NCBI GenBank assembly: GCA_965205015.1
Contig: OZ242029.1
Coordinates: forward strand, 384,001 to 448,000
DNA from: Candidatus Poribacteria bacterium
GTDB lineage: Bacteria; Poribacteria; WGA-4E; WGA-3G
DNA length: 64,000 bases
Direction: 5' to 3'
The notes under the pieces were generated by a model. The model worked only from the letters and a program-made list of their open reading frames with translations. It did not search any database and was not told where the DNA came from. The position numbers were made by a program, and so were the translations under genes. Shown in pieces: positions 32,462-56,026 of the stretch; position 1 is the stretch's first letter, and every line of letters begins with the position of its first letter.

Positions 32462-33319
32462 ATGACACATCGACACATCCTGACATGCCTCTTTTTGCTC
32501 GCTTTAATTCCGCTGAGTGCCAAAGCATTCCCACCCGCTTCACCCGCAGGGGGTAACTATTTAATCCTCGATGGGGTGGACGACTATGCGGTTTTAGACT
32601 TTAAAACCTTCGGTATCCTCTTACCGAAAGGCACGGACGAATTCACCGTTGAAGCGTGGGTATACCCAACCACACCACTGCCTAACATGGATACACACGC
32701 AATGATTCTCAGTCAACAGGTGCGAATGAATGCAGCGGTCGCTGTCGAGGCACGGAGGGACATCAAGAAGGGGGATTTAGTCTTAGCAATGCAAGCACAC
32801 ATTACGGTTGTGGGCAGGCTCGCTACGACCCCGTACCATCCCGTAGTACTTGCCCCGAACCAATGGCATCACATCGCTTATCAGGCGGAAGGGAAAGAGA
32901 CAGTAACCATCGTTAACGATTTCGTAGGCATCTTACCGCAAAGAACAACACTCGCGCACGATCTCGCAGGATTCAAGCGTCCAAAGGATTTTACACTCGG
33001 AGGATTTGGAAAGAAAGTCAAGTTCCACATCGATCACTTTTGGGGACCTTTTGCGGGATATATTGATGAGGTCCGTATCTCGAGAGTCGCTCGTTACAAG
33101 GTCGGCAAAAAAGGGTTCACGCCGCGCGAAAAGTTCAAGGAGGACCCGAAGACGGTTGCGCTGTGGCATTTTGATGAGCCGCACGGAACACAGACATTTT
33201 CAGATGCCTCGGGACATGCACATCATCTGACGGGTAAAAATGGCGCAAGGACCGGCATCCCACTCGCAGTCGAACCCCACGAAAAACTCACCACAACATG
33301 GGGACGACTTAAGCAATGA
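32462..33319 (+). CDS. Secreted LamG/concanavalin-like protein with TWG tail
   Basis: LDGVDDY, FTVEAWVYP, WHHIA, GYIDEVRIS, LWHFDE; C-terminus LAVEPHEKLTTTWGRLKQ. Confidence 0.85.
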   Translation: MTHRHILTCLFLLALIPLSAKAFPPASPAGGNYLILDGVDDYAVLDFKTFGILLPKGTDEFTVEAWVYPTTPLPNMDTHAMILSQQVRMNAAVAVEARRDIKKGDLVLAMQAHITVVGRLATTPYHPVVLAPNQWHHIAYQAEGKETVTIVNDFVGILPQRTTLAHDLAGFKRPKDFTLGGFGKKVKFHIDHFWGPFAGYIDEVRISRVARYKVGKKGFTPREKFKEDPKTVALWHFDEPHGTQTFSDASGHAHHLTGKNGARTGIPLAVEPHEKLTTTWGRLKQ

Positions 33320-33364
33320 AATCTCGAAAAAAGCTTTCGTTATGGGTGTATAGGAGGAAGTCTC

Positions 33365-36256
33365 GTGGAAGTAAAAGAAGATGTTCAGTTGATTCACGAC
33401 ATTTTATCAGGCAACGATGATGCCTTCAGCACGTTAGTGCAAAAATATCAGAAGAGTGTTCACGCGCTCGCTTGGCGAAAGATTAGCGATTTTCACTATG
33501 CTGAAGAGATTACGCAGGACACCTTCCTCCAGGCATACAAAAAACTCTCGACCCTCAAAAATCCGCATCATTTTGCTGGGTGGCTGTATGTCATTGCAAA
33601 TCGGCTTTGCATTAACTGGCTCCAAAGGCACAAATCGGCGATGCAATCGCTTGAGGGTACGCCAGTGCGGGAAATCAATCAACTCACTTATGAACGTTAC
33701 ATCTCCGAGGCGCGCGAATCGGAAGCGACCGAACGCCGGTATGAAATCGTCGAAAAACTTCTCGAAAAACTCCCAGAAAGTGAGCGCACAGTGATGACGC
33801 TCTATTACCTCGGTGAGATGACGGCGAAAGAGATAGGCAACTTCTTAGGGGTGTCAGTGAATACGATTAAAAGCCGGCTTCGGCGAGGGCGAGAACGTCT
33901 ACAAGAAGATCAGGAACTCTTAATTCAAGAGGTCTTCAGTGGCGTCCAAATATCGACGGGTCTGAGCCAGAACATCATGCGGCAAGTCGCTGACTTGAAA
34001 CCCACACCCCCGCCGGCTACGAAACCCTTGATTCCATGGCTGGCTTTGGGAACGGCTGCGGTTTTGGTGCTGTTGCTGGTGGGTGCAAGCGATCGATACC
34101 TCACCCGCTTTCAGAAGCCTTATAGTCTCGATGCGGCATCTGAACCGACAATTGAAATCGTTGATGCCCCTATCGTCCTTGATATTGATGTGAAACCGGA
34201 TGTGCGACATCAAGTTGGACGGATTGTATCCAGAAATAAAAATGGCGACACAGGTTTGCAGGCTTCTGAGAGGATCCGAACATCTAATGCCCAAGCGGGT
34301 TCTTCCAAGTTTTCTATTTCACAGTGGACCCAGACAAATGGACCACCGGCGGGTTACATCCGCAATATCTTCGCTACGCCGGAGGAGGCTGTTTATGCTG
34401 TTGCATCGTCAGGACTATACAGATTAACAGAAGACGCGAGCGCTTGGACACACATCGACGGGAGTGTTCCAATTGACAAATCTCTAATGCCGATGGCAGC
34501 TCACGACGGGAACCTTTATATCGTTTCCGCTGACGAGGTATTCACCTCGACGGATCGGGGTGAAACATGGAATACACTCGGTCCTCGACCGAAAGGGGAG
34601 GCTGTCGGAATTCTCATGACGGATGAGGCACAACCCCGCATTACAATGTACCTCGCCCTGAAAGATGAAGGGGTTTTCCGATCAACAGACGGTGGAACGC
34701 ACTGGCAGCCGCTGCGAGATGGATTAACAAGCAAAAAAATCTCCGCAATTGCCGCTGTTGACAACACAGTGTTTGCTGGAACAGAGAACGGACTCTACCG
34801 TCTTGATTCGGGCATCTGGAATAAGTTGCCCGTGGAGACATCACGAGCCGTCTGTTCCTTGACAGTATCTGGAAATAACCTTTATGTTGGAACGGGTTCC
34901 GATCTATTGGTGACATTAACGCCAACAGAAATATATCAAGTCCATCGGGAGACACGGAACACATGGAATCACTGGAATAACAGGTCGTACCCCGTCAAGA
35001 TTTTCCATTCATCTGACTTGGGAGCCTCGTGGACTGAAATAATGGACGGAAGTGAATACAATTATGAGGGTTCACCATCGGGTATAACAGTTTTAGCCGT
35101 AGGTGAAACGCTCTTGGCATTAGGGGTGTATCAATCCCGTTCAGCAGATGGTGGTAAAACGTGGACCAAACTTGGATGGGACGCGAGTTGGTTGAGGTAC
35201 AGTAGCCGCCCCGCTGTAATGGTGAACGAGAGCACGTTTTACAAAACCAGAGGATTCGGGCTTCACCGCACAACAGATGGCGGCGACTCATGGCACCTCT
35301 TTTTGAACGGAATGACAGGAACACTTCTAATTGATTTGGTTGCGTTTAACAACAGGTTATACGCACATTCCGGCTACGAAGTCTATCAATCCTCCGATGC
35401 CGGAGAGTCTTGGAAAAAAGTTCCCGTTGAGGGACAGGAAACCGCTCTCAACCCGAGAATCAAAATCGCTTCTGAGTCAAAGTTCGTGGTTACCGACAAT
35501 ACGCTTTACCTTCTTTCATCTGAAGCAGAAGACTTCCAAATTTTCCGTTTATCCACAGATGGCGATACGCTCATTCCAGTTCAAGGCGTCCCCATTTTTG
35601 ACCGTCAATCCATTTCTTTTGCCATAGCGCGTCTGCAAACGGAAACGGCTACCGCCAGCCGCGATGCGTTCTATGTGGAATACCAAAGAAAACTTTTCAA
35701 ATGGAAACTGGGGGATCCGACGTGGATAAACACGGGATTGGTAGATACAAGTCAAGTGTCCTATAGCGATTACAGAGGTGGATTCAAAATAGCGGTTTCC
35801 GATGAAACCGTCTACGTCGGTCAACGGGACGGACATCTGTTTCAGTCGCTTGATGAAGGGAAAAGTTGGAAAGACATTACATCGAGTTTGCCGCTTCGCT
35901 TCACCCGTTTCAAAGAGGTAACCTTTGTCGGGCAAACGATCTACGTCGCAACAGACAAAGGCACCTTGGTTTCACAGACTGGGGACCACTGGAGCGTTCT
36001 AACCGATGGGGCTGACAGGCGTCCTATCGTAGACAGATTTGCTACAGATGGCACCAAAGTCTACGGCATCGGTGAAGCAGGGGTCTATCATTTAGATGCC
36101 AGTGGCCAATGGACACAGATTTCGTCAAATGTTCCCGATAAAATTCTCTCCCTCGTCGTCAATAATAACAGGCTTTATAGTGTTACGCAACAAGCTGGGA
36201 TGTTTCATATCCCGCTTGAGGCGGATACCATTGCAGAGAGTAGTTCTCGGTATTGA
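33365..36256 (+). CDS. ECF sigma factor fused to a transmembrane helix and an extracytoplasmic beta-propeller
   Basis: AEEITQDTFLQAY, FAGWLYVIA, EIGNFLGVSVNTIKSRLRR, TM LALGTAAVLVLLLVG, BNR/Asp-box repeats S.D.G..W. Confidence 0.9.
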   Translation: MEVKEDVQLIHDILSGNDDAFSTLVQKYQKSVHALAWRKISDFHYAEEITQDTFLQAYKKLSTLKNPHHFAGWLYVIANRLCINWLQRHKSAMQSLEGTPVREINQLTYERYISEARESEATERRYEIVEKLLEKLPESERTVMTLYYLGEMTAKEIGNFLGVSVNTIKSRLRRGRERLQEDQELLIQEVFSGVQISTGLSQNIMRQVADLKPTPPPATKPLIPWLALGTAAVLVLLLVGASDRYLTRFQKPYSLDAASEPTIEIVDAPIVLDIDVKPDVRHQVGRIVSRNKNGDTGLQASERIRTSNAQAGSSKFSISQWTQTNGPPAGYIRNIFATPEEAVYAVASSGLYRLTEDASAWTHIDGSVPIDKSLMPMAAHDGNLYIVSADEVFTSTDRGETWNTLGPRPKGEAVGILMTDEAQPRITMYLALKDEGVFRSTDGGTHWQPLRDGLTSKKISAIAAVDNTVFAGTENGLYRLDSGIWNKLPVETSRAVCSLTVSGNNLYVGTGSDLLVTLTPTEIYQVHRETRNTWNHWNNRSYPVKIFHSSDLGASWTEIMDGSEYNYEGSPSGITVLAVGETLLALGVYQSRSADGGKTWTKLGWDASWLRYSSRPAVMVNESTFYKTRGFGLHRTTDGGDSWHLFLNGMTGTLLIDLVAFNNRLYAHSGYEVYQSSDAGESWKKVPVEGQETALNPRIKIASESKFVVTDNTLYLLSSEAEDFQIFRLSTDGDTLIPVQGVPIFDRQSISFAIARLQTETATASRDAFYVEYQRKLFKWKLGDPTWINTGLVDTSQVSYSDYRGGFKIAVSDETVYVGQRDGHLFQSLDEGKSWKDITSSLPLRFTRFKEVTFVGQTIYVATDKGTLVSQTGDHWSVLTDGADRRPIVDRFATDGTKVYGIGEAGVYHLDASGQWTQISSNVPDKILSLVVNNNRLYSVTQQAGMFHIPLEADTIAESSSRY

Positions 36257-36283
36257 AATGCATTCTACAAATGGAGGCAAACC

Positions 36284-37402
36284 ATGAAAACCTATTTGAC
36301 TTTTGGAATCCTAATTCTGTGCGCCTTGTTAGTTATCAACGTTGCCAATCTTGGTGCCGAAGAGAATTGGACGCAGAAAGCAGATATGCCGACACAACGC
36401 TCCAGTTTTGATACCTGTATTGTGAATGAAAAGATATACGCAATCGGGGGCGGGATTGAGGGATTTGGAAACTTATCCGTCTCAACGGTAGAGATGTACG
36501 ATCCGACAACCGATACATGGGAACGAAAGGCGGATATGCCGACCGCCCGTTCTAATGCGTCTGTCTCGGTTGTAGACGGAAAAATATATGCGATTGGTGG
36601 AACGGAACTGAAGAGGTTTGAGATGGATGTCCTTATTCAGGGTGAGTTTAGAAAGGTTAAACAGTGGGAGCCCAAAGAACTTCCAACCGTGGAAATGTAT
36701 GATCCAACGACCGACACATGGATGCAGAAAGCAGACATGCCGACACCCAGAAATACTGGCACTTGTGTCGTGGACGGAAAAATATATGCTATCGGTGGAA
36801 TAGCGTTTAATAATGTTAAGAAGAAAAAACCGTGGCGTTTAGATACCGTGGAAGTCTATGATCCAGCAACAGACACATGGGCGAAAGGAAAGAAAATGAA
36901 CCATGCTCGCGATGGTGCCGCAATCAGTGTAGTAGATGGAAAGATCTACGTCATGGGCGGAACGGGTTGGCCCCAACTTCCAAATCGTCCAGGTCCCTAT
37001 CTCTCCAGCATTGAAGTGTTTAATCCAAAAACGAATCAATGGCGTGACATTGGGGAAATGTCTGAGCCAAAATCAGGTCATTCAGCAAGTGTCATCAACG
37101 GAAAAATTTACGTGATAGGCGGTTTTTTCCGAGGCAATGGGTTAGATACGAAATATTTTAAAACAATCGAAATCTATCACCCTGAAACCGGTCGCTGGAC
37201 ACAGAAACCCGACATGCCGGTTGGCAAATCAGGACATGCGGCTGAAGCCATAAATGGGAAAATCTATATCCTTACCGGAGCAGACCCTGATGAGGTTCCA
37301 TTTGCCACCGTTGAAGTCTATGCCCCAGAAGGGTTCCCTCAGAGCGTCGATCCAACCGGGAAACTTTTCAAAACATGGGGTACCCTTAAGAACATACAGT
37401 AA
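36284..37402 (+). CDS. Secreted kelch-repeat protein with TWG tail
   Basis: Six repeats of GKIY.IGG...VE.YDP.TDTW; ends VDPTGKLFKTWGTLKNIQ. Confidence 0.9.
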   Translation: MKTYLTFGILILCALLVINVANLGAEENWTQKADMPTQRSSFDTCIVNEKIYAIGGGIEGFGNLSVSTVEMYDPTTDTWERKADMPTARSNASVSVVDGKIYAIGGTELKRFEMDVLIQGEFRKVKQWEPKELPTVEMYDPTTDTWMQKADMPTPRNTGTCVVDGKIYAIGGIAFNNVKKKKPWRLDTVEVYDPATDTWAKGKKMNHARDGAAISVVDGKIYVMGGTGWPQLPNRPGPYLSSIEVFNPKTNQWRDIGEMSEPKSGHSASVINGKIYVIGGFFRGNGLDTKYFKTIEIYHPETGRWTQKPDMPVGKSGHAAEAINGKIYILTGADPDEVPFATVEVYAPEGFPQSVDPTGKLFKTWGTLKNIQ

Positions 37403-37488
37403 CAGGAAAACTATCTACACACCGCGATGAAATCAAAGCAGAACATTATAACTCACCTTAACATCGGTTCGTTAAGAAGGAGAAATCA

Positions 37489-38634
37489 ATGAGGTTCAAA
37501 ACGTTTCAGTATCTACGATGGGTTGTTGGTTTCGCTGCTGTTGTTCTATTTCATGTAGCCACGGAGAACACTGATGCGGAAAAATGGAAGGTCATCTCCC
37601 AACTTCCAACAGAGAGAACGGGTTTCGCGACCGCAGTCGTTGATAGTAAGATTTATCTTTTCGGTGGCACACTCTTTGAACATGAGCGGGGGGTTCGGCG
37701 TGAAAATGAACCTGGTATTTGGCGGGGTCCTTTTGGGATGTCCTTGGTGGAAGTCTATGATCCACAAACCAACGCTTGGCAGAGACTCGCAGATATGCCG
37801 ACTGCTCGATCCGAACCTCTGACAGCCGTCGTTGATGGCAAGATTTATGTTTTGGCAGGATACGTCGGGAAAGACAACAAGGGAGTGAATCTCAAAAATC
37901 TGAAAGCCGTCGAGATGTACGATCCACAAACCGACATGTGGGTCAAAAAACAGGACATGCCTACCCCCCGCATAGACTTCGGCACTGGTGTAGTGGCTGG
38001 CAAAATTTATGCCATTGGCGGACGTGTCTACTGGAGGGATAGAAAACCTGGGAGTCCAGGACGCATTGATCTCGTGGAAGTCTACGACCCTGCCAGCGAT
38101 ACGTGGACAAAGCGCGCGAAAATGCCAACCAAACGCAATGGCTTCGGAACAGGGGTTGTCAACGATCAGATTTATGCTATCGGGGGGACTGGCTGGCCCC
38201 AAGTAGGCAATCACGGGGGTCCCTATCTTGGAACGATTGAGGTCTATGAACCGAGAATCAACCGATGGACGAAGAGGGCTGACATGCCAAATCCGAGAAC
38301 CGTATTTTCGACAGTTGTTATTTCCGATAAAATCTATCTGATCGGCGGTTCCGATGTGCAAGCGGGGGGTGCTGCGGTGGGTGAGTGGCTTGCCAGCATC
38401 GAAGTGTATGATCCAGCTACCGAGAAATGGCGTGTGGTTTCTGCGGGACCAATCGTAAAGTCGCCATTTGGTGTAACGGCGGTTAATGGTAAGATTTATA
38501 CCTTCGGTGGTTACACAGCAGATTGGGAACTTTCTCCAATCGTCGAAGTCTTTGATACCGGTTTTCGTAATGTCGAGGCGCGTGGAAAACTTCCGACGCG
38601 CTGGGGTGAACTCAAAGCAACACGCCAAAACTAA
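37489..38634 (+). CDS. Secreted kelch-repeat protein with TWG-type tail
   Basis: Kelch repeats; ends VEARGKLPTRWGELKATRQN. Confidence 0.9.
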   Translation: MRFKTFQYLRWVVGFAAVVLFHVATENTDAEKWKVISQLPTERTGFATAVVDSKIYLFGGTLFEHERGVRRENEPGIWRGPFGMSLVEVYDPQTNAWQRLADMPTARSEPLTAVVDGKIYVLAGYVGKDNKGVNLKNLKAVEMYDPQTDMWVKKQDMPTPRIDFGTGVVAGKIYAIGGRVYWRDRKPGSPGRIDLVEVYDPASDTWTKRAKMPTKRNGFGTGVVNDQIYAIGGTGWPQVGNHGGPYLGTIEVYEPRINRWTKRADMPNPRTVFSTVVISDKIYLIGGSDVQAGGAAVGEWLASIEVYDPATEKWRVVSAGPIVKSPFGVTAVNGKIYTFGGYTADWELSPIVEVFDTGFRNVEARGKLPTRWGELKATRQN

Positions 38635-38824
38635 TCTTAACAGCGGTTCGTATTAATAGAAGGGATATGCAATGCGCAAATACCAAACTTACTGAGTGTT
38701 CCCGATAAAACCGTTTCTTTCGTCGTCAATAAAAAAGCCTTTACATTGCTACATGAGTGCGCGGGATGTTCCATATCCCGCCTGAGACGGAATTGTGAAT
38801 TTTACTATAGAATGGAGGCAAACC

Positions 38825-39901
38825 ATGAAAACTTACTTGACCTGCGGAATCCTAATTCTGTGTGCCCTGTTAGTTATCAATGTTGTTAATCTGGTTGCCG
38901 CCGAAGAAAATTGGACGCAGAAAGCAGATATGCCGACACAGCGATCTGATTTTGCTACCTGCATTGTCAATGGAAAAATATACGCTATTGGAGGTGAAGT
39001 TGACAAATTCGGGGACGTATCCATTGCAACAGTAGAGATGTACGACCCGAAAACTGATACATGGACGCAGAAGGCAGATATGCCCACAGCCAGAAGTACC
39101 AGTACCTCCGTCGTCGATGGAAAAATCTACGCCATTGGTGGAGGAAAAACACACAAACGTCGGATTGGTCCCGGTTGGGGATGGGAAACTATAATACTCC
39201 CAACTGTGGAAATGTATGATCCGATTACGGACACGTGGACCCCGAAAGCAGACATGCCTGCGCCAAGAAGTGCCGATACCTGCGTCGTGGGCGGAAAAAT
39301 ATACCTTATCGGTGGCGCGAATAAAAAACAGCATCGATCAGAAATCGTAGATGTGTATGACCCTGCAACTGATACATGGGCAAGAGCCAAAAGCATGAAC
39401 CACGCGCGCTCCGGTGCGGCAATTAGTGTTATGGATGGAAAGATTTACGTCATGGGCGGCACAGGGTGGCCCCAGATTCCATTCCACCCAGGTCCCTTTC
39501 TCTCCAGCATAGAGGTGTATAACCCAAAAACAAATCAATGGCGCGAAATAGGAGATATGCCTGCCGCAAAATCGAGCCATACAGCAAGTGTCATCAATGG
39601 AAAAATTTATGTGATAGGTGGTTTTTTTCGAGGCAATGGGTTAGATCGAAGATATTTTAAAACAATCGAAATCTATCACCCTGAAACCGGTCGCTGGACA
39701 CAGAAACCCGACATGCCGGTCGGCAAATCAGGACATGCGGCTGAAGTCATAAACGGGAAAATTTATATCCTTACCGAAGCAGATCCTGATGATGCCCCGT
39801 TTGCAACCGTTGAAGTCTATGCCCCAGAAGGGTTCCCTCAGAGCGTCGATCCAACCGGGAAACTTTTCAAAACATGGGGTACCCTTAAGAACATACAGTA
39901 A
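38825..39901 (+). CDS. Secreted kelch-repeat protein with TWG tail, paralogue of 36284..37402
   Basis: Kelch repeats; last 100 bp identical to the first kelch gene. Confidence 0.9.
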   Translation: MKTYLTCGILILCALLVINVVNLVAAEENWTQKADMPTQRSDFATCIVNGKIYAIGGEVDKFGDVSIATVEMYDPKTDTWTQKADMPTARSTSTSVVDGKIYAIGGGKTHKRRIGPGWGWETIILPTVEMYDPITDTWTPKADMPAPRSADTCVVGGKIYLIGGANKKQHRSEIVDVYDPATDTWARAKSMNHARSGAAISVMDGKIYVMGGTGWPQIPFHPGPFLSSIEVYNPKTNQWREIGDMPAAKSSHTASVINGKIYVIGGFFRGNGLDRRYFKTIEIYHPETGRWTQKPDMPVGKSGHAAEVINGKIYILTEADPDDAPFATVEVYAPEGFPQSVDPTGKLFKTWGTLKNIQ

Positions 39902-40208
39902 CAGGTGAAGCGGTCGGGAAACTCTCCACACGTTGGGGTGCGTTGAAAATGAAGCACCAAAACCAACCTTAATGCCTTGAAAGATGCCCAACTACCAGAA
40001 TTTGTCCTTCGATCCTCTTCTACTTTCCCGTCGTTATACCATCTACAAAATATTTACACACCCCGAGAGAGATTAGTGCTATAATAAAGGGCGGATCGGT
40101 TTGATCCAATCATTGCCTTACCAGTTTCACCGCAGCCACAATCACTAACAACGACATGCGGAGAAATAGAGACAGAAAACTGAAGTCAGCGTTTTGAAGG
40201 AGTCGATA

Positions 40209-41195
40209 ATGCGAGAAAAGGGTCTACTTGTTTTATGTATGCTAAATGTAGTCGCATTGTGCGCAGGCGTTTGTCCCGTTTTCGCTAAGGCACCCAACAC
40301 AGCAAAAATAGTGTATTCCTCAACCCGCGACGGGAATTGGGAAATCTATACTATGAACACAGACGGCAGTCAGCAAGTGAGATTAACACAAAATTTTGCA
40401 GAGGATTTTACCCCTGTTTGGTCACCTACTGGCGAGGAGATACTTTTTCTATCGGATCGGGACGGAGTTCCTGACCTATACCTGATGGATGCCGATGGGA
40501 AAAATGTTCGACGGGTGTTTAAGAAATCTGCACGTAGAGAACACCCGACCTGGTCACCCGACGGCAAGCAGATTGCTTATGTCCGCAAGTGGTTTATCTA
40601 TATCGCTACACTTGGGAAACAAGAAGAACACCAATTGGTAAACGGCTTCGATCCGACATGGTCACCCGATGGTACCGAGATAGCCTTTGCGAGAGGGGCT
40701 TTCGGAAGCCATCGGTTGACCCTCGTCAACGTTCGGACGGGAAGGCAAAAGCAGGTACTCCCAGAGAATACACTGTCATGGCAGCATTTGCCAGCGTGGT
40801 CTGTGACAGGCGAGCAAATTGCCTTTTCTTGGTTGAATCACGTTCTGCCGAACGGTAAACTTTTTGACCTTGTTGATAAAGAGACCATCTATATTGTGAA
40901 TCGCGACGGTACTGGACTTGCACAAATTGTCTCTGAAGCGGGCAAAGCAGCGATGGATCCCGTTTGGGATCCACGAGGTAATAGCGTTGTTTATGAGCAA
41001 GAAATTGACAATTATTTCCAACTTTTTAAAATTAATCTGGCGAGTCGTGTCCGAACACAACTTACACATATTGCAGTAGGTCCCGGTCGGGGGAATGCAG
41101 ACGCAGACTGGTTTGATCCTATTGTTGCCTTGTCCGTTTCACCGCAACCACAATTGCTAACAACGACGTGGGGAAAAGTAAAGAGAGAAAACTGA
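40209..41195 (+). CDS. Secreted TolB/PD40-repeat propeller with TWG tail
   Basis: P.WSPDG repeats, SDRDG..DLYLM; ends VSPQPQLLTTTWGKVKREN. Confidence 0.88.
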   Translation: MREKGLLVLCMLNVVALCAGVCPVFAKAPNTAKIVYSSTRDGNWEIYTMNTDGSQQVRLTQNFAEDFTPVWSPTGEEILFLSDRDGVPDLYLMDADGKNVRRVFKKSARREHPTWSPDGKQIAYVRKWFIYIATLGKQEEHQLVNGFDPTWSPDGTEIAFARGAFGSHRLTLVNVRTGRQKQVLPENTLSWQHLPAWSVTGEQIAFSWLNHVLPNGKLFDLVDKETIYIVNRDGTGLAQIVSEAGKAAMDPVWDPRGNSVVYEQEIDNYFQLFKINLASRVRTQLTHIAVGPGRGNADADWFDPIVALSVSPQPQLLTTTWGKVKREN

Positions 41196-41220: not shown

Positions 41221-42180
41221 ATGCGAAAAAAACATCTGTTTGTTTTATGTGTCCTAAGTATCGTCATGTTATGCGCAAACGTTTGTTCGGTCTTTGCCAA
41301 AGCACCCGACACACCGAAAATCGTCTTTACTGGGTGGCGCGGCGACAATCGGGACATCTATCTGATGAATCCGGATGGAAGTGAGCAGGTCAACATTACC
41401 AATCACCGCGCAGATGATGTCTCTCCCATCTGGTCTCCGACAGGCGAACACATCCTTTTCGCCTCTGATCGAGATGGTCCCCGCGACCTGTATTTGATGA
41501 ATCCTGATGGTTCCAATGTGCGGCGCGTTTTTGGGAAATCGGCAACGAGGGGAGGACCGGCCTGGGGTCCCGATGAAAAACAGATCGCCTATGATCACGG
41601 ACCCCCTGGGAACAGGTTCATCTACACCGGAACAATAGACGGTAAGAAAGAAGAACGCATGGCAATTGGAGCACGTCCAACCTGGTCTCCCGACGGCACG
41701 GCAATCGTCTTTACCAGCGGCGCCTTGGGCGAACCGTGGCGCTTCAGTTTACTCAACGTCAAAACGAAAAGGCTAACGTTCTTCCCTTTCCCCAAGGAAC
41801 CCATGTTTGTTCGGGGTCCCGCATGGTCCCCAAGTGGCGACAAACTCGCCTTCTCCTGGCACATTGATGGCTTCAGAGAAGAGGCAATCTACATTGTGAA
41901 CCGAGATGGGACAGATCCGCAAGAAATCGTGGGCGACATTACAACGAGGGCTTCTGATCCGACCTGGTCCCCCGATGGTACCGCACTCCTTTATACACAA
42001 CTTGTTAACAAGAATTTACACATCTTCAAAGTCGCATTGGACGGTGGGAAGCCGGTCCAACTCACCCACGACGGATGGAATTATATGGGCGGTTGGTTTG
42101 ATCCGGCGTATGCCTTGCCCGTCTCACCACAACCACAATTGCTAACAACCCAATGGGGAAACGTAAAGAAAGGAAACTAA
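41221..42180 (+). CDS. Secreted TolB/PD40-repeat propeller with TWG-type tail
   Basis: PD40 repeats; ends VSPQPQLLTTQWGNVKKGN. Confidence 0.88.
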   Translation: MRKKHLFVLCVLSIVMLCANVCSVFAKAPDTPKIVFTGWRGDNRDIYLMNPDGSEQVNITNHRADDVSPIWSPTGEHILFASDRDGPRDLYLMNPDGSNVRRVFGKSATRGGPAWGPDEKQIAYDHGPPGNRFIYTGTIDGKKEERMAIGARPTWSPDGTAIVFTSGALGEPWRFSLLNVKTKRLTFFPFPKEPMFVRGPAWSPSGDKLAFSWHIDGFREEAIYIVNRDGTDPQEIVGDITTRASDPTWSPDGTALLYTQLVNKNLHIFKVALDGGKPVQLTHDGWNYMGGWFDPAYALPVSPQPQLLTTQWGNVKKGN

Positions 42181-42205
42181 AGCAGGATTTTTGGAGAAAT
42201 ATATA

Positions 42206-43183
42206 ATGCGAACTCAGTATCTATTTGTTCTATCTGTGCTAAGTGCGGTTCTGTCATGCGTAAGCGTCTGTCCAGTTCTTGCCAAAGCACCCAATACGGC
42301 AAAAATTGCATTCGCGTCATCTCGTGATGGAAATCGTGAAATCTATCTGATGAATCCGGATGGAAGTGAGCAGGTTAATATCACCAATCATCGCGCAAAC
42401 GATATTTATGCAGTTTGGTCGCCAACAGGTGAACACATTCTTTTCGTCTCTGATCGTGAGCAGAAGGAGAAGGGATGGGGGAATTGGGATTTGTATCTCA
42501 TGGAACCAGATGGCTCTAATGTACAAAAGGTGTTTGACAAATGGAAGATACGAGCAAATCCCACATGGTCTCCCGATGGCAAACGATTTGCCTACAGTTA
42601 TGGAGAAATTGGAAACAATTTGCTCTATATTGGCACAATCGATGGAAAAGAGGAAGAGCGTGTGGCGATTGGTTACTCACCGGCATGGTCTCCAGATGGC
42701 ACGCAAATCATCTTTCGCAGCGGTGCCTTGGACAAACCGAGACGTTTCAGTCTACTCCATGTCAAAACGAAAAGACAAACATTCTTCCCTTTCCCCAAGG
42801 AACCAAAATGGGTTCGGGGTCCCGCATGGTCCCCAAGTGGCGATAAACTCGCTTTCTCCTGGCACATTGATGGCTTCAGGGAAGAGGCAATCTACATTGT
42901 GAATCGCGATGGCACAGATCCCCAAGAGATCGTGGGGGCTCTTACAACACGGGCTGGCAGCCCGATCTGGTCTCCAGATGGCACAGAACTCCTATATACA
43001 CAATTTGTTAACAAGAATTTACACATCTTCAAAGTCGCCTTGGACGGCGGGAAACCGGTCCAACTCACCCACGAAGGATGGAATTATAGGGGTAGTTGGT
43101 TTGATCCGGCGTATGCCTTGCCCGTCTCACCACAACCACAGTTGCTAACGACGACGTGGGGAGACGTGAAAAAAGGAAACTGA
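42206..43183 (+). CDS. Secreted TolB/PD40-repeat propeller with TWG tail
   Basis: PD40 repeats; ends VSPQPQLLTTTWGDVKKGN. Confidence 0.88.
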   Translation: MRTQYLFVLSVLSAVLSCVSVCPVLAKAPNTAKIAFASSRDGNREIYLMNPDGSEQVNITNHRANDIYAVWSPTGEHILFVSDREQKEKGWGNWDLYLMEPDGSNVQKVFDKWKIRANPTWSPDGKRFAYSYGEIGNNLLYIGTIDGKEEERVAIGYSPAWSPDGTQIIFRSGALDKPRRFSLLHVKTKRQTFFPFPKEPKWVRGPAWSPSGDKLAFSWHIDGFREEAIYIVNRDGTDPQEIVGALTTRAGSPIWSPDGTELLYTQFVNKNLHIFKVALDGGKPVQLTHEGWNYRGSWFDPAYALPVSPQPQLLTTTWGDVKKGN

Positions 43184-46537: not shown

Positions 46538-47884
46538 CAGGGGTATTTAGTTTTAAGTTTTGTCACTGTATGAGTTTAACTGCGAGTTTAGGTTTTGCAG
46601 CGAAAAATCGCAGTGTTTCCGCAATTTTTGTGTGTCCGTCAAAGCGTAAGAGAGCCAGGGCAGTGTTGCGTAGGGCAGCCATGACTTGTGGGAGTCTCCC
46701 TGTTCTTGCTTGTGAAGCGTCCTCCCCGAGGACGACATCTCGCACCCAATGGACTTTGTTTTCTATCGTCCAGTGTTGGCGTCGGAGTTTGAGCAAAGTT
46801 TCTGCGGATGCGTCTTGTGGTGTAAGACTCGTGATGCCATACTGCGTCTGGTAGGTAGTCTCGCCTGTTTTGGTATTCTCCCGCTTGGATTGGTATTGAT
46901 ACACTTGTGCGAGTCCTGGCCAGTTGATATAATCCGTCAAGAGTGTGCTTGCTGTTAGCGTGCGTGTGGTGATAAACCCGTGTGATGTTTCAACGTCTGT
47001 GTGGGTATCAAGGTGTGCGTCTGCCTCGGTGTGTAGGTTCTGAAACCGTCGTGCTTGGACGTGTGGTGTGTCTGTCTCCGAAAGCGGTTCAAAGAGTTCG
47101 CGAATGTCGTGATACATCTGTTTGTGATTCTCTTTGACGGGCATTGCATAGTTTGCGTGATATTTGAGAACCTCTTTACAAAAGGTTCTTTGGGTCAAAA
47201 GTGCATCTGTTGTTATGACTTTCCCGGTGACATCAAAGGTTTTCAGAAGTTGCGTTGAGATGGGGATCTCATTTGTTTTTCCACTGACAGCCCGCTGTGT
47301 AAGGGTAATCCCTAACTCATGAGAGACAGCGGAGAGTAAATGTGTGCGGTATCGGGTTTCTGGGTCTTTGGAGCCACATAACTCTTTGCCATCTATCGCC
47401 ACCCCTTGTAAATCCTGTGTTTTCAAAACTTGAAGACTTTCAAGTTTTGAAAACACCCATTTCGTGAGTAAGGCTTCGAGACTCACGACGTCAAGACGCT
47501 TCAAAAGATTATGAAGCGTTCCAGCACACGGGGTCTTCTCTGATTTGAAACCTAACGCTTTTGCCAGGGCCCCTTGATGCCGTGCCCAAGTCGCTATAGA
47601 CGTATACCCTTTATGATTCGACATTACACCGATGACGAGCAGCGCAAGGATAGACCCCAAGTTGTAGCGTTTCCCTTTTTTATGGCGTGGATCCGGAACT
47701 TCTGCTAATATGTCAAGTAAGTGGCAAGAGGAACTTCTTGTCATGATTCACCTCAAAAAATGTGATGGTTTTTTACGGTGAAGTATAGCAGATACAGCGG
47801 GAAAAGTCACGCTGTATCTGTTTATTTTATAATATTAACAGATGTGAAAAATATTACGAAAAAACCGAAAACTGAATACCCCTG
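46538..47884 (-). mobile_element. ISAs1-family insertion sequence
   Basis: 17-bp terminal IRs CAGGGGTATT(T/C)AGTTTT with one mismatch; 10-bp target duplication ACACAGACAC at 46528-46537 and 47885-47894. Confidence 0.95.
46563..47744 (-). CDS. ISAs1-family transposase
   Basis: VPDPR, AIDGK, KTNEIP, ITTDAL, VKENH, RQHWTIENKVHWVRDV..ED. Confidence 0.95.
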   Translation of the reverse strand: MTRSSSCHLLDILAEVPDPRHKKGKRYNLGSILALLVIGVMSNHKGYTSIATWARHQGALAKALGFKSEKTPCAGTLHNLLKRLDVVSLEALLTKWVFSKLESLQVLKTQDLQGVAIDGKELCGSKDPETRYRTHLLSAVSHELGITLTQRAVSGKTNEIPISTQLLKTFDVTGKVITTDALLTQRTFCKEVLKYHANYAMPVKENHKQMYHDIRELFEPLSETDTPHVQARRFQNLHTEADAHLDTHTDVETSHGFITTRTLTASTLLTDYINWPGLAQVYQYQSKRENTKTGETTYQTQYGITSLTPQDASAETLLKLRRQHWTIENKVHWVRDVVLGEDASQARTGRLPQVMAALRNTALALLRFDGHTKIAETLRFFAAKPKLAVKLIQ

Positions 47885-47953
47885 ACACAGACACCTAAGG
47901 AATAAGAGGCGGGAATCGGAGTTCCCCTCCTACAGAAGCGTCCTAATTTTCCT

Positions 47954-47982: not shown

Positions 47983-48048
47983 GTGAATTGATATTTATAG
48001 CAAATTCATCAACTGGGACCATCCCACCCCAAGATAGGAGAAGAATCC

Positions 48049-48543: not shown

Positions 48544-48585
48544 CAAAGGCGATTCCCGACTCACACCCCTGGGAGGAGAAAAGCC

Positions 48586-49671: not shown

Positions 49672-49871
49672 GGGAAACACCCAAGCAAAAACACACCGTT
49701 GTTAGAGAATTTGCCTTGCCGTCTGCTGAGAAATCTTGTATACTTTAATAATTAAATCTGAACTATGATTTTTACGATTCTCAGACTTACCATGATTATT
49801 GGAGGTCCGACCATTCTATCATCTATCGTGGTAAATCACATAAATCACAAACCTTGGAGGAACCTCCCATT

Positions 49872-50795
49872 TTGAAAAACTTTCGGTTCATTCTCGCCAT
49901 TTTGCTTCTCTTCGGTTTCAGCGCGACGTTGATGGGAAATGAATGGGCGAACTACTACTTTCCAGATGCCCCGGGTAATTACTGGGTTTACGAAGACCAG
50001 AACGGTGACGAACTAACGCGCTACGCAATAGAGCCAGAAGAGATTGATGGCGAATTCTATCGCGCCTTTAGTTACGACCCGGCTTTGGAGGACTGGGCAG
50101 ATTTTGAGCATTACACACACCCCTATTTCTACCAAGTCGGTGCCGACTGGGTGGCGTTTTTCGTTGGCACTGAAATCGAAAACGCCCTCAAGGCAGCAAC
50201 GATGCAACAGATGGAAGAAGCAATGGTGCTGATGCGTCAGGCAATGCAAGATCAGATGCCTGAGGGATTAAACATCACATTTGACTTAGATTACGATATT
50301 GAAGTGGATTCCCAAGACTACTTCTACTTCCTGCCGACCCCCGCCACCTTTGGTGAAGAGTGGACAGCCATAGAAATAAACGTCGTCCTCACGCTGACAA
50401 TCGATTTCCAAGGCATGCCTATAGAGATACCGGGTGGCTCAGCGCAGACTGTTAAAACTTACACAACTCTCGTAGAGACAGGAAACGTCACCGGCACGGA
50501 GACGGTGGAAACGGAAGCTGGCACCTTTGAAGATTGCTTGGTAATTGAATATCGAACAGATGCCTCAACAGAGACTGTTATGTCCGTGGAAGTCCCACAA
50601 GCCCCCGGACCGCAAGAACAGCAAGATGTAACCCTAACAACTATCTGGTTGGCACCGAACGTCGGTATCGTCAAATTTGAACACCAACACGAGGCATCTC
50701 CAGAGAATGAAGAAATGGGGCTGGCAACGCCTGAAGACCAGACACTTGAATTAATCAGTTACGAAATCAAATCCTCAAGTTCGGAGAACGAATGA
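49872..50795 (+). CDS. Secreted hypothetical protein
   Basis: GGAGG RBS, signal peptide, [27 protein letters not shown]. Confidence 0.75.
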
Positions 50796-51769
50796 GCACC
50801 TTCCCTGTCTATCGTCCGAGGCGACTTCGCGCAAATGAGAATTTGCGACGATTGGTTCGCGAGACCACGCTCTCTGCTAATGACCTTATCTACCCGATGT
50901 TTGTCGTTCATGGACATAACACCGCGACCGAAATTTCCGCGATGCCCGGGTGCTATCAATACTCGGTTGATACCCTCGTCATCGCCGCAAAAGAACTCGC
51001 CACGCTTGGAATCCCAGGAACAATTCTGTTCGGAATCCCAGAGGCAAAAGACCCACTCGGTTCTGAGGCATACGCCGACGATGGGATCATCCAACAAGCC
51101 GTTCGAGCCATCAAAGACGCTGTGCCCGATCTGCTCGTCATGACGGATGTGTGTCTCTGCGAATACACCGATCATGGACACTGCGGTGTCGTTGCAGCTG
51201 GCGAAGTACAAAACGATCCGACACTGGAACTCCTCGTTAAGGAGAGCCTGTCGCACGCCCGTGCCGGTGCCGATGTCATCGCACCGTCAGATATGATGGA
51301 CGGTCGCGTCGGCGCAATTCGTGACGCGTTAGATGAAAGCGGTTATGAAAACATCCCGATTATGGCATATTCCGCCAAATACGCCTCCGCCTTCTACGGA
51401 CCCTTTCGGGAAGCGGCGGAATCAACACCCCAATTCGGAGATCGACGTGCCTATCAGATGGATCCAGCCAATGCAGAAGAGGCGTTACGGGAAGTCGCAT
51501 TGGATATCCAAGAGGGCGCGGACGTTCTCATGGTGAAACCCGCCCTCTCCTACCTCGACGTTATCCATCGGGTCAAAACAGAATTTCAGGTGCCTGTTGC
51601 GGCTTACAACGTCAGCGGTGAATACGCTATGATTAAAGCCGCCGCAGAAAACGGTTGGATCGATGAAGAGCGGGTCGCTTTGGAGGTCCTCAACAGCATC
51701 AAGCGCGCAGGGGCGGATATAATTTTAACCTACTTTGCGAAGTCCGTTGTCGAGTGGCTCAACGATTAG
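50792..51769 (+). CDS. hemB: Porphobilinogen synthase (Zn type)
   Basis: [40 protein letters not shown]. Confidence 0.97.
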
Positions 51770-51895
51770 GGTTACGGAACATGGGTTCGACTTAGAACAG
51801 ACTTTTCTCTTTCCGCTCAACCTGGGGAAATCCGCAGAAACACCCAAGCAAAAACACCTACGAAAACTAATAACTGACAACTTTGGAGAAATACT

Positions 51896-53179
51896 TTGGA
51901 GAGCAGCAAATCCTTAGCCGCATGGCAGAAATCACAACACGTCATCCCCGGCGGGGTTAACAGCCCCGTCCGAAATTTCAGCAAAGTCGAAGGGCATCCC
52001 CGTTTCATCGAACGTGGCGAAGGCTCGAAAATCTACGACATCGATGGCAACGAATACATTGATTATGTCGCCTCCTGGGGTCCCTTGGTTTTGGGACATG
52101 CGCATCCGAGCGTCATAGAGGCTATCCATTCAGTGGCGGCGAACGGCACGAGTTTCGGCGCGCCGACGACGCGGGAGACAGTGCTCGCTGAAATTATTGT
52201 CAACGCCGTCCCCTCAATTGAACAGGTGCGACTCGTCAATTCGGGCACCGAGGCAACCATGAGCGCAATCCGTGTCGCTCGCGGGTATACCGGTCGTGAT
52301 AAAATCCTTAAGATCGACAGTTGCTACCACGGGCACGTAGACTATCTATTAGCGAAAGCCGGCTCCGGGGTCGCAACCTTCGGACTTTCAGATAGCGGCG
52401 GTGTTCCCGAAGACTTCGCACGGAACACACTCACAGTCCCTTTCAATAATCCTGACGCTGTCCGTGAAGCGATAGAAGCCAATCCAGACGAAATCGCCTG
52501 TCTCATTCTCGAACCGATTATGGGCAATATGGGCATCATCCCGCCGCGTGAAGGCTATCTCAATCAACTCCGTGAGATCACTGAAGAACACGGTATCGTG
52601 CTTATCTTTGACGAAGTTATCACCGGCTTCCGAGTCGCTTACGGCGGTGCGCAATCCTACTATAACGTTACACCCGACATGACCTGTCTCGGAAAAATTA
52701 TCGGTGGCGGGTTGCCCGTTGGAGCATACGGCGGAAAACGGGACATCATGCGATGTGTCGCACCGGAAGGCGATGTCTATCAGGCGGGAACCCTGTCGGG
52801 CAATCCGTTAGCCGTTACCGCAGGTATAGCGACGTTGAAGAAACTCGCTGAACCAGGGGTTTATGAGCACCTCGAAAACAGTGCCGCTGCCCTTGCGGAA
52901 GGTCTCGCCGCGGCGACTCAAAAACATGGGATCGACGCATGGCACAGTCGGGTCGGTTCGATGCTGATGCTCTATTTCACATCGGAAACTGTCACCGATG
53001 CCGATGGGGCACGCACAGCCGATACAGAACGCTTTCAACATTACTTCTGGGGACTTTTGGAGCGCGGGGTCTATGTCGCGCCCTCCCAATTCGAGGCAGG
53101 ATTTGTCTCCTTAGTCCACTCTGAAGAGGACATCAACAACACCATTGAAGCCGCAACACAGGCATTAGCGAATCTCTAA
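51896..53179 (+). CDS. hemL: Glutamate-1-semialdehyde 2,1-aminomutase
   Basis: [37 protein letters not shown]. Confidence 0.97.
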
Positions 53180-53188
53180 ACGGAAAAT

Positions 53189-53292
53189 AAGGGAAGGGCA
53201 GCCACAAGGGCTGCCCCTACATTATGTCCAACCTTGATCAAAGGGAAGGGCAGCCACAAGGGCTGCCCCTACATTATGTCCAATTTCGATCA
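53189..53292. repeat. 52-bp tandem duplication containing a GTAG-type REP
   Basis: AAGGGAAGGGCAGCCACAAGGGCTGCCCCTACATTATGTCCAA(CCTT/TTTC)GATCA x2. Confidence 0.9.
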
Positions 53293-54259
53293 AATTGTTG
53301 AATTAATTGCTGACGACCTCAGTGCCGTTGAGGCGAAACTCACCGAACATACCGCTAGCGAATACACGTTCGTTGACATGGCGGTTCAACACGTTGTGGA
53401 GGGCGGCGGTAAACGGCTCCGCCCGATTCTCGTCGTGCTTTCCGCCAAAGTCTGCGGCTACGAAGGAAGCGATGCACACACCCTTGCCGCTGTTGTTGAA
53501 CTTATCCACGTCGCCTCGCTCGTTCACGACGATGTCCTCGACGAAGCCGCCATCCGCCGTGGACGTGAGACGTTACAGACGAAATGGGGCAACAAAGTCG
53601 CTGTCCTCGTCGGAGATTACTTACACGCACGAGTGCTTTCGATGCTCGTATCTCGTCGTGCGGATGATCCGGCGATGGCGATCCTCGCTGATACCACACA
53701 AGCGATGTGTGAAGGTGAGGTGATACACGCATATAAAAGCGGCGATTTCGACATCTCCGAAGCCGAATACCTCAAAATCATCAGTTTCAAAACCGGCAAA
53801 TTAATCGCGGCGTCCTGCACCCTCGGCGCACATCTCGGAAACCCAACAGACACACAGCAGATTGAGGCACTCACAACCTACGGACAACAGATCGGAACCG
53901 CTTTCCAAATTGTAGACGATTTGCTCGATTTCACAGAAGATTCCGACACATTGGGGAAAGACGCGTTTGGCGACCTCCGCGAAGGAAAACTCACCTTCCC
54001 CATCATCTATGCCCGAACCGTCTGCAATAACGATGAAAAACAGACGCTTGAAAAAGTGCTAAAACCCGACACCAATGAAACGGAAGCGATCGCCTTTGTC
54101 GAGGCTCTGTTCCAACGTTATGGCGTTGAAACCCACTGTTTGAAGGTCGCCCAAGGTTACGCCGAGCGCGCCAAAGCCGCATTGGCACCCTTACCCGAAA
54201 CCCCCGCGCGCATCGCCTTGGAACACCTCGCAGATTACGTCGTCTCCCGCGAGTCATAA
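53276..54259 (+). CDS. Polyprenyl diphosphate synthase (IspB/HepT-like)
   Basis: GGKRLRP, HDDVLD (FARM), DDLLD (SARM), DLREGK.T. Confidence 0.92.
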   Translation: MSNFDQIVELIADDLSAVEAKLTEHTASEYTFVDMAVQHVVEGGGKRLRPILVVLSAKVCGYEGSDAHTLAAVVELIHVASLVHDDVLDEAAIRRGRETLQTKWGNKVAVLVGDYLHARVLSMLVSRRADDPAMAILADTTQAMCEGEVIHAYKSGDFDISEAEYLKIISFKTGKLIAASCTLGAHLGNPTDTQQIEALTTYGQQIGTAFQIVDDLLDFTEDSDTLGKDAFGDLREGKLTFPIIYARTVCNNDEKQTLEKVLKPDTNETEAIAFVEALFQRYGVETHCLKVAQGYAERAKAALAPLPETPARIALEHLADYVVSRES

Positions 54260-54506
54260 AAACAGTTGTCAGTTAATATGTCGCTGTGCGTTGTAGCACA
54301 AACTTTATGGAGTTTCAGAATTTAATTCGGTAGTGTAGGATGGTAATTGCCTGAAGCAGGATTAACAGGATTAAAGAATCTTCAGGATTGGATGTCCGCC
54401 TTGACGGGAACTGTCCGCATAGAATTACCCAATTATTTATTTCCTCTACGCCCGGCAGATGCGGTTTGTCATCACACCATAGGTGTCAATTTAAGAAAAA
54501 TACTAT

Positions 54507-54750
54507 CGTAGGTTGGGTTGAACGGTTACCACCAAACTCGCAGAAATCATAAAAATGCGACATTTTCTCCTGATACATCATATCAGATAAACAGCGAGTG
54601 AAACCCAACACTTTCGCTTTGATGTTCCCGGGGTTCTGTGGGTGTAAAGTTGGGTTTCACTCTGTTCTTGAATATGTTGCGGGATACTGACTTTAGATGG
54701 GTCTGGCATATTAATGCCCACCCTCTCAACGCCGTTCAACCCAACCTACG
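54507..54750. repeat. REPIN/MITE-like element with perfect 19-bp terminal inverted repeats
   Basis: CGTAGGTTGGGTTGAACGG ... CCGTTCAACCCAACCTACG; inner IR GAGTGAAACCCAAC / GTTGGGTTTCACTC. Confidence 0.8.
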
Positions 54751-54883
54751 GGTCAAATTGACTCTTAGCGGGCGGAATCAGGCACAAACTCACAGTTTAT
54801 GCTACAACAACTCTCACAAACTCACAGTTTGTGCTACAAAGAGGCAACTCGCATCATAAATCGACGCATCAGGAGCATCCCTT

Positions 54884-56026
54884 ATGAAATTGCTAAGTAA
54901 AAATTTGCTGCTGACGATGGTTTTCGGAGGTTACTTGTTCTGGAACTTGCCATCCACAACACAGGGATTCATCGCGAGGGCTGGCATATTTAACATGCTG
55001 GTGCAAAAAGTGCATGAACCCCAGTGGCGAATCGGCTATAATTTCATCTTTGGCTGTGCTGCCGCCTTCGAGGTAAAGGGAGAAGACAAACTAAAAGCAG
55101 CAATCACCAAGACCCTGCAGGTTTGGATGCAGCCGTTGCGGGAGCGGTACCCGAACAAGGTATTTACCGATGATTTTATCTTCGTGCGGATGCCGGATAT
55201 GAAAGAACGCTTTGATAACAGGGAGGCACGAGAACAGGTGGACCTGCGTATCACCTTCGATTGTAAACCGGCGGTGGTGGGTGGTACTGGTGTCCTCGTT
55301 TCAAGTATAGTGTCTCCAGATGTATATATGCGAGAGGGGACTGACCTTGATAATAACCGTTTTCTCAGCGTTTTTGCCCACGAGTTAGGGCATGCTTTCG
55401 GACTGGCGGATACCTACGTTCGCGGCAATCGGGTGAGCACAGGGGGGTTGACCAAGACCGAAGGCAAGCAACCGTCATCACTCATGGCAGATGCTCATGG
55501 AGTTTTTCGACTGCGTCAGTTCGCTTACCTCAGGGAAGATGACAAAAACGGCATCATCTATCTCTACAAGTACTATCACGAGGACCACCCCGCAGGTGAT
55601 TGTTTTTTCCCTGATTACGTTTCCGTAGAGGCTCGACTTAAGACCCATCAAGCTTGCGAGCCGCGTTACCCGTTAATTTTTGAGGCAAAGCACGGGACCT
55701 CTAAAACTGTGGAGCAGATACTGAAAGATGATCCAACGCTTGATATAAACGCACGGGATGCCAGCGGGTTTACGGCACTGCATCATGCCGTGCAGCAAGG
55801 AAGTGTCGAGAAGGTGAAGGCATTGTTGGCGAAAACGGGCATCAAAGTCAACCTCCTCAACACACACAAGCGTACACCCGCACAACTCGCACGCATCCTC
55901 AAACAGACCCAGATTGCAAAGATGATCGAGGCGCATCCGAGCAGCAAGCACCCCTCGATCGCATGGGACGTAGCACCCAAAGGCAAATTGACGACGACTT
56001 GGGGACACCTCAAAAAGAAATACTGA
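54884..56026 (+). CDS. Secreted zinc metalloprotease with ankyrin repeats and TWG tail
   Basis: HELGHAFGLAD, INARDASGFTALHHA ankyrin repeat; ends VAPKGKLTTTWGHLKKKY. Confidence 0.85.
   Translation: MKLLSKNLLLTMVFGGYLFWNLPSTTQGFIARAGIFNMLVQKVHEPQWRIGYNFIFGCAAAFEVKGEDKLKAAITKTLQVWMQPLRERYPNKVFTDDFIFVRMPDMKERFDNREAREQVDLRITFDCKPAVVGGTGVLVSSIVSPDVYMREGTDLDNNRFLSVFAHELGHAFGLADTYVRGNRVSTGGLTKTEGKQPSSLMADAHGVFRLRQFAYLREDDKNGIIYLYKYYHEDHPAGDCFFPDYVSVEARLKTHQACEPRYPLIFEAKHGTSKTVEQILKDDPTLDINARDASGFTALHHAVQQGSVEKVKALLAKTGIKVNLLNTHKRTPAQLARILKQTQIAKMIEAHPSSKHPSIAWDVAPKGKLTTTWGHLKKKY

Follow-up and report, generated by a model that had tools for sequence, protein, structure and literature searches.

A short C-terminal TWG tail on Sec-exported proteins of Poribacteria, a candidate address tag with a proposed link to type IX-style surface sorting

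A 64,000-nucleotide stretch of a Candidatus Poribacteria genome (assembly GCA_965205015.1, contig OZ242029.1, positions 384,001 to 448,000), which is referred to here in its entirety as the window, encodes eight exported proteins that end in the same short peptide, the TWG tail, with the consensus L-A-V-[ED]-P-x-G-K-L-x-T-T-W-G-x-[LIV]-K and a further 1-5 residues. We propose, with roughly even confidence, that this tail is a phylum-wide, portable and flexible C-terminal address or docking tag of Sec-exported proteins, and that it is functionally tied to surface sorting by a type IX secretion system (T9SS) apparatus. That the tail is read at all, by which reader, and where its carriers finally reside is what we infer from the sequence patterns set out below. 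C-terminal sorting signals define how bacterial surfaces are constructed and, to our knowledge, every well-understood signal of this kind takes the form of a folded domain or else of a motif with a membrane anchor behind it. The TWG tail is a bare peptide of 17 residues, present on approximately 100 exported proteins per genome across a whole phylum, and it is carried by those 'eukaryote-like' proteins, of lectin-like, kelch, ankyrin and propeller type, that are thought to mediate life in sponges. It also offers a straightforward sequence criterion by which the exported binding proteins of these uncultured sponge symbionts can be annotated.

All eight tails that a preliminary description of the window had reported at protein ends were located (Table 1), and all eight open reading frames (ORFs) are on the plus strand. 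When aligned on the tryptophan, each of the eight is made up of approximately 11 conserved residues, followed by [T/Q/R]-W-G-x-[L/V]-K and a final 1-5 residues, the number beyond the invariant lysine being 1, 3, 5, 3, 3, 3, 3 and 3 in coordinate order. The assignment of the carriers to four unrelated folds was borne out as far as the LamG, kelch, PD40/TolB and HExxH-ankyrin families are concerned, but the fold count must be lowered as the kelch and PD40 proteins are both beta-propellers. For the ankyrin protein (54884-56026), all metalloprotease (metzincin) Pfam matches fell below cut-off. Signal peptide-like hydrophobic N-termini were, as had been described, present in all eight proteins, that of the LamG protein (32402-33319) beginning after an internal methionine. 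DNA with the potential to encode WGx[LIVMF]K occurs 10 times in the window, eight of these occurrences being the tails, as compared to 1.0 +/- 1.0 occurrences in 100 shuffles of the window, none of which reached 10. No window ORF of at least 60 amino acids other than these eight ends in the motif, in agreement with the original statement that no cytoplasmic protein or lipoprotein of the window has the tail, and it is absent from the signal peptide-bearing TPR (598-2151 and 26981-29545) and WD40 (3749-5347) proteins as well as from the FGE-sulfatase (5444-6229), the LolA-like protein (6912-7649) and the thioredoxin lipoprotein (23746-24825). Two short antisense ORFs containing TWGPCG, caught in the window by a loose regular expression, were discarded as they do not represent the motif.

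The placement of the tail was determined in one complete Poribacteria genome by a census of 72 stretches, amounting to 1.395 Mb around the first 100 listed sites, in which in-frame TWGx[LIVMF]K sites were counted in ORFs of at least 50 amino acids. Of 95 such sites, 90 were situated 1-10 residues ahead of the stop codon, with a mode of 3, while the five non-terminal sites comprised one with 17 extra residues, one in a junk ORF of 57 amino acids, two (650 and 674 residues from the end) without the upstream context, and one which precedes 91 residues that constitute a T9SS-type C-terminal domain (CTD). A hidden Markov model (HMM) of the tail, applied at a threshold of at least 10 bits to 10,880 ORFs of at least 60 amino acids (1.78 Mb, overlapping loci counted without de-duplication), returned 213 C-terminal hits and just two elsewhere, these being a case with 16 additional residues and the pre-CTD case. 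When 1.84 billion representative proteins were searched exhaustively with a tail profile, 771 matches were obtained at E<=0.001; among the best 150 of these the motif lies within 12 residues of the end in 141, five have 13-24 extra residues, one has a K-to-R variant at the end, and three are unrelated long repeat proteins. The preliminary description had held that internal occurrences would speak against a sorting role; a true internal site does exist, but solely directly ahead of a T9SS CTD. In a few tail proteins (L074:7199-8179 on the minus strand, P0176, P0257 and P0265) 13-24 residues follow the lysine, and either a free end near the motif is not strictly needed or the over-length tails represent recent stop-codon losses.

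The tail is coupled to export, as signal peptide-like N-termini were observed for 81 of 82 tail ORFs of at least 200 amino acids as compared to 318 of 746 other ORFs, the call being a liberal hydropathy heuristic, rather than SignalP, that was applied by the same rule to both sets. The HMM counts and this co-occurrence are those which the preliminary description had called for. The passengers are diverse: among 84 tail proteins of one genome, 41 matched Laminin_G_3, nine were 3-keto-disaccharide-hydrolase-like, eight matched PD40, five were lamin-tail-domain (LTD) proteins of approximately 1050 amino acids, Kelch, CBM9, F5/8-C and RhaB_D2 were represented by one protein each, and 17 were without a family. 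Unrelated passengers, an extreme C-terminal position and coupling to signal peptides are the hallmarks for which the tail had been likened to a C-terminal sorting signal, and that likeness stands.

The tail is not peculiar to the window. When one of its TolB-like proteins was used as query, 15 loci were matched with up to 88% identity, several of them on complete Poribacteria chromosomes of 5.4-5.9 Mb, and in three complete genomes TWGx[LIVMF]K-coding sites numbered 131, 102 and 118 as against 7, 3 and 8 for the reversed pattern. The pattern was found in each of 120 sampled Poribacteria genomes, with a median of 70.5 sites (range 4-142) and at least 20 sites in 114 of them, whereas the reversed-pattern control gave 0-10. 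In the two poorest genomes all four sites each are genuine tails, and in a third genome seven of 12 are genuine. As the pattern occurs in all 120 genomes and is genuine even in the poorest, the tag is, by this distribution, ancestral to Poribacteria, and it has been greatly expanded in most lineages. Across 38 TolB-like homologues the tail columns are invariant or near-invariant at a mean column identity of 48%, and the DNA at tail sites varies at synonymous positions; as judged from these alignments, the tail is under selection at the protein level. An AlphaFold2 (AF2) model of the TolB-like protein at 42191-43183 had a mean predicted local distance difference test (pLDDT) score of 87.1, with tail residues 318-330 below 50. 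In this model the tail neither folds into nor packs onto the propeller passenger, the opposite of the outcome by which the preliminary description would have been refuted.

A connection to the T9SS emerges from the boundary between cargo and CTD. The preliminary description had recognized a different, FlgD/T9SS-like CTD on the tail-less protein at 24834/24909-26963, an assignment that was upheld by the curated type A model (Table 1). This protein also matches FlgD_ig (32.4 bits) and Dockerin_1 (24 bits), a dockerin repeat and a helical linker lie ahead of its CTD, and there is no TWG motif at that position. The tail and the CTD had been presented as alternatives, and this did not hold, as both can occur in tandem on one protein: of 22 distinct CTD-bearing ORFs, three have a TWG-like motif immediately ahead of the CTD, with a constant spacing. 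The common junction among the 22 reads L-x-x-L-x-P-x-E-T-x-L-L-x-NYPNPF and is also that of 24834-26963. The clearest tandem is a VCBS/ASPIC protein (L045) with 80 orthologue cluster representatives down to approximately 59% identity, in all 80 of which the junction V-E-P-x-G-K..T-x-W-G-[KR]-[IV]-K is followed by a 6-residue spacer and NYPNPF. The tryptophan of this junction is kept in 78 of the 80, the glycine in 76 and the last basic residue in all 80, while more distant homologues have a looser motif and many CTD homologues are without it. An AF2 model of the last 150 residues of L045 gave pLDDT scores of 84-97 for the CTD and of less than 50 for the motif, which is located in the linker, outside the CTD sandwich. 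As the curated CTD model begins at the tyrosine of NYPNPF, the ends of the tail-only proteins fall within the 6-residue spacer between lysine and CTD. Should CTD removal proceed as it does for known T9SS cargo, CTD-trimmed cargo and tail-only proteins would thus share one C-terminal peptide. Passenger modules are common to tail-only and CTD-bearing proteins as well, namely PD40, LTD and RhaB_D2-like modules, the last with 45% identity. The conservation of the motif at the CTD boundary ties the tail, in our reading, to the T9SS-type sorting apparatus, and the tandem arrangement argues against an entirely independent pathway. What the preliminary description had put forward as a dedicated route of export or surface attachment is therefore retained only in part: the tail behaves as a portable sorting tag, but no machinery gene was identified for it.

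Kamke et al. (2014; PMC3909097) report CTDs in Poribacteria but no Por structural genes, and a tail at the CTD edge provides a handle on how these bacteria treat CTD cargo. Candidate outer-membrane parts of a T9SS are nevertheless encoded by Poribacteria, in the form of SprA-like, PorU-like C25 and PorV-family proteins, which in genome G003 are found at four loci (Table 1). The SprA-like ORF of G003 is approximately 2300 amino acids in length and scores 141.6 bits (cut-off 200). PorU-like ORFs number two or three per complete genome (three in G003), are 1735-2170 amino acids long, score 357-395 bits (cut-off 420) and each carry a CTD of their own; a PorV/PorQ-family gene directly follows one of them. 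PorV-family ORFs (E<=1e-20) amount to 5-12 per genome, and each of the 120 genomes has one or more that exceed the cut-off. A review (PMC10202324) describes PorV-like barrels as dealing with specific substrates, reports that the final 22 residues of the HBP35 CTD are enough for GFP to be secreted, and notes that it is unknown how PorU decides whether cargo is released or attached; the tail at the CTD edge would also be a handle on that choice.

Candidate readers were sought among these parts by comparison with tail number. PorV-family copy number was rejected as a correlate (Spearman 0.10, p 0.29 against tail count in 120 genomes). Genomes with three PorU-like copies (n=80) have a median of 78 tail sites as compared to 42 for those with two (n=39; Mann-Whitney p 8e-6, uncorrected for phylogeny), so that an association of the third paralogue with tail number is a weak lead; it was rejected as a required reader since seven two-copy genomes have at least 90 sites, up to 142. 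In G003, tail genes adjoin the SprA-like gene and also occur at a distance of 2.5 kb from one PorU-like gene (PorU-like C), an adjacency which is not significant given approximately one tail gene per 50 kb, the clustering of tail genes, and their absence from two of the four machinery windows. Two tail genes found adjacent to the SprA-like gene and in the vicinity of a PorU-like gene, L115:15896-16732 (plus strand) with TVWARVK and L117:15145-15918 (plus strand) with TIWGHLK, have substitutions in the otherwise 'invariant' core.

In the reading proposed here the tag consists of the conserved core and 1-10 variable polar residues, most often three, on proteins that are mostly lectin-like and repeat binding proteins, and the apparatus to which it would be tied is composed of a SprA-like translocon, PorU-like C25 sortases and PorV-family barrels. 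In some T9SS cargo the tag forms the last residues ahead of a cleavable CTD, so that CTD-cleaved cargo and tail-only proteins would present the same C-terminal peptide. Most likely, a receptor of the envelope or surface would bind this exposed peptide and retain the protein at the cell envelope or surface, and binding may be non-covalent, with the peptide docking as a strand or hairpin, or may be covalent once it has been cut behind the invariant lysine.

Several observations weigh against the proposed link between tail and T9SS-type sorting. Because 19 of the 22 CTD cargo junctions are without the motif, it is, judging by these junctions, no general requirement of T9SS processing, and none of 120 homologues of the TWG and CTD tandem protein was tail-only, so that these homologues show no direct interconversion. 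The matches of the SprA-like and PorU-like ORFs fall below the curated cut-offs; GldL and GldM were unmatched in searches whose controls were equally silent and which are thus uninformative, and GldK searches gave partial FGE-sulfatase-like matches only. No candidate reader clearly co-varies with tail number in the 120 genomes. The tail-only proteins are without a known signal for crossing the outer membrane and may therefore be periplasmic. Low pLDDT scores constitute weak evidence of flexibility, and the alignment behind the pre-CTD linker is shallow (24 rows).

One rival explanation, which we consider unlikely, is a periplasmic tag that is independent of the T9SS, in which case the proteins would never leave the periplasm and the tail would be bound there by a reader, for instance a protease or chaperone with a PDZ domain or an outer-membrane protein of the inner leaflet, for retention, quality control or timed degradation. 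Tail-only proteins have just a Sec-type signal and no folded CTD, their tail is exposed and flexible in the AF2 model, the variable 1-10 residues beyond the lysine suit a peptide-binding reader better than a strict end rule, and no T9SS gene clearly follows tail number. Such a periplasmic role is, however, difficult to reconcile with the conservation of the motif directly ahead of the CTD in cargo that is expected to be exported, with the PD40, LTD and RhaB_D2-like passengers common to both protein classes, and with approximately 100 lectin-like binding modules, which are hard to account for as periplasmic residents. Another explanation would have the tail act by itself as a minimal signal for export through the T9SS-type translocon, with one of the 5-12 PorV-family barrels as its dedicated carrier, a view modelled on the PorP/SprF-like barrels that serve type B CTDs and one that seems to us quite unlikely. 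The many PorV-family paralogues per genome would accommodate it, as would the secretion driven by a 22-residue CTD piece and the substrate specificity of PorV-like barrels in the review cited above (PMC10202324), and the position of the G003 tail genes beside the SprA-like gene and 2.5 kb from a PorU-like gene; yet the tail has no resemblance to any CTD motif and is matched by no CTD model, proteins with both a tail and a full CTD would have one signal too many, the number of PorV-family genes does not follow that of the tails, and the gene adjacency can be due to chance, considering the density and tandem clustering of tail genes and the two machinery windows that have none.

The tail might also be a minimal sortase-type signal, a proposal that we regard as decidedly doubtful, whereby a PorU-like C25 peptidase would cut behind the lysine, taking off either the 1-10 residues that trail it or an entire CTD, and would attach the C-terminus so created to a glycolipid of the surface. 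Were this true, approximately 2% of the poribacterial proteome, for the most part eukaryote-like proteins of the lectin and repeat kinds, would be surface-displayed by a CTD-less branch of type IX-style sorting, and the motif would represent the long-sought 'attach versus release' determinant at the PorU step. That the tail is a functionless relic of CTD loss, or else a structural element of each passenger domain, was already disfavoured and is highly improbable: tail-only proteins do stop where a CTD would begin, but hundreds of diverged paralogues with unrelated folds have kept the motif throughout the phylum, this conservation is at the protein and not the DNA level, and the AF2 model shows no packing of the tail against the propeller. 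The address or docking tag tied to T9SS-type sorting is the explanation that we prefer.

The genes surrounding the tail genes were also inspected (Table 1). When the kelch proteins at 36284-37402 and 38795-39901, which have identical tails, were aligned globally over 373 and 359 residues, 293 positions were identical; a third, more diverged kelch gene (37489-38634) sits between these paralogues, and the arrangement suggests a recent tandem duplication. An extracytoplasmic function (ECF) sigma factor fused to a BNR/Sortilin-type beta-propeller (33365-36256, plus strand, 963 amino acids) is located between tail genes, and in G003 a sigma fusion of 1024 amino acids, in which an ECF sigma region was identified (L114:4065-7136), adjoins the PorV-family/PorU-like operon. 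A DDE transposase (46563-47744, minus strand; DDE_Tnp_1 and DDE_Tnp_1_assoc) separates the propeller genes from the ankyrin-protease gene, and a complete Pup-proteasome cluster occupies 10227-17214 on the plus strand.

Table 1. Tail-bearing proteins, the CTD-bearing comparator and other features of the window, together with loci of T9SS-type components in genome G003.
Feature	Position	Strand	Details
LamG-domain exported protein	32402-33319	+	tail 33263-33319 (LAVEPHEKLTTTWGRLKQ); Pfam Laminin_G_3 30.9 bits
Kelch beta-propeller exported protein	36284-37402	+	tail 37340-37402; Kelch_1 239 bits
Kelch beta-propeller exported protein	37489-38634	+	tail variant RWGELK + 5 residues, 38566-38634; Kelch_1 202 bits
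Kelch paralogue of 36284-37402, tail identical	38795-39901	+	tail 39839-39901; Kelch_1 235 bits
PD40/TolB-like propeller	40194-41195	+	tail 41133-41195; PD40 95.5 bits; TIGR02800 152.9 bits, below cut-off 343
PD40/TolB-like propeller	41221-42180	+	tail variant QWGNVK, 42118-42180; PD40 75.1 bits
PD40/TolB-like propeller, AF2-modelled	42191-43183	+	tail 43121-43183; PD40 111 bits
HExxH zinc-protease-like domain and ankyrin repeats	54884-56026	+	tail 55964-56026; Ank_2 37.7 bits; HELGH at residue 166
Comparator without tail: metzincin, dockerin and T9SS type A CTD cargo	24834/24909-26963	+	TIGR04183 34.9 bits (cut-off 23)
Proteasomal AAA ATPase with OB domains	10227-12071	+	
Pup-ligase family gene	12162-13673	+	
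Pup-ligase family gene	15856-17214	+	
Proteasome subunit	14022-14816	+	
Proteasome subunit	15012-15731	+	
SprA-like, PorU-like C25 and PorV-family loci, G003	L114:7224-14732, L115:7873-14733, L116:7550-14059, L117:7407-12611		

Tails of a related kind were detected in uncultured soil and sediment bacteria by a metagenome scan for TWGx[IV]KxLYR followed by a stop codon, which matched at least 125 stretches where we would expect few by chance, this being our own estimate from base probabilities and not a tool control. The matches listed contain 83 distinct ORFs, and signal peptide-like N-termini were present in 53 of the 55 that are complete. Distinct [ST]WGx[IVL]K sites in these loci number 90 and are terminal without exception, 83 of them by construction. 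These tails resemble the Poribacteria tail in having T-W-G-x-[IV]-K at the C-terminus and a proline few residues upstream, but differ from it in the upstream sequence (C..A-T-P-[TV]-x-x-[ST]-TWG), in a fixed x-L-Y-R end in place of 1-5 variable residues, and in the base composition of their loci, at 53-74% GC as compared to approximately 50% in the Poribacteria window. Homology of the two is plausible. The notion that the LYR ending represents the start of a CTD (LYQ followed by NYPNPF) was ruled out by spacing, K-x-LYR as against K-xxx-hYQ.

The tail corresponds to no domain described in Pfam or NCBIfam; had it done so, the preliminary description would have been refuted. No Pfam or NCBIfam model covered it in scans of the eight whole proteins, the last 40 residues of six of the eight matched no family at E<=10 save for one spurious match at 0.17, NCBIfam sorting-domain models did not match the tails, and no paper on this tail was found in a full-text literature search; the public names of its homologues are 'LamG domain-containing', 'PD40 domain-containing' or 'hypothetical' and nothing else. 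Among known C-terminal signals, the beta-signal of outer-membrane beta-barrels was ruled out, as the tail passengers are soluble LamG, propeller and ankyrin domains and as the beta-signal ends in an aromatic residue whereas the residues beyond the tail lysine are variable and mostly polar or basic. A type I secretion signal, which functions without an N-terminal signal peptide, does not agree with the signal peptide-like N-termini of 81 of the 82 tail ORFs. The sortase- and exosortase-type signals LPXTG, PEP-CTERM, GlyGly-CTERM and MYXO-CTERM are, like the tail, short, near the C-terminus, multicopy and attached to unrelated exported folds. In these signals the motif is followed by a transmembrane helix and a basic cluster, whereas just 1-10 mostly polar residues follow the tail lysine in 90 of 95 sites, which agrees with the earlier statement that the tail is devoid of a transmembrane helix. 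The T9SS type A CTD is a folded Ig-like sandwich of 70-100 residues that undergoes PorU/PorV processing, while the tail is 17-22 residues long, is modelled as unstructured, lies outside the curated CTD model, has no known cleavage or attachment, and was not matched by the type A models (TIGR04183 and PF18962) in either the eight proteins or the six 40-residue ends. Like the tail, the type A CTD occupies the extreme C-terminus of Sec-exported proteins that have many different folds; the two co-occur in genomes and share passenger types, and in some cargo the tail directly abuts the N-terminal edge of the CTD.

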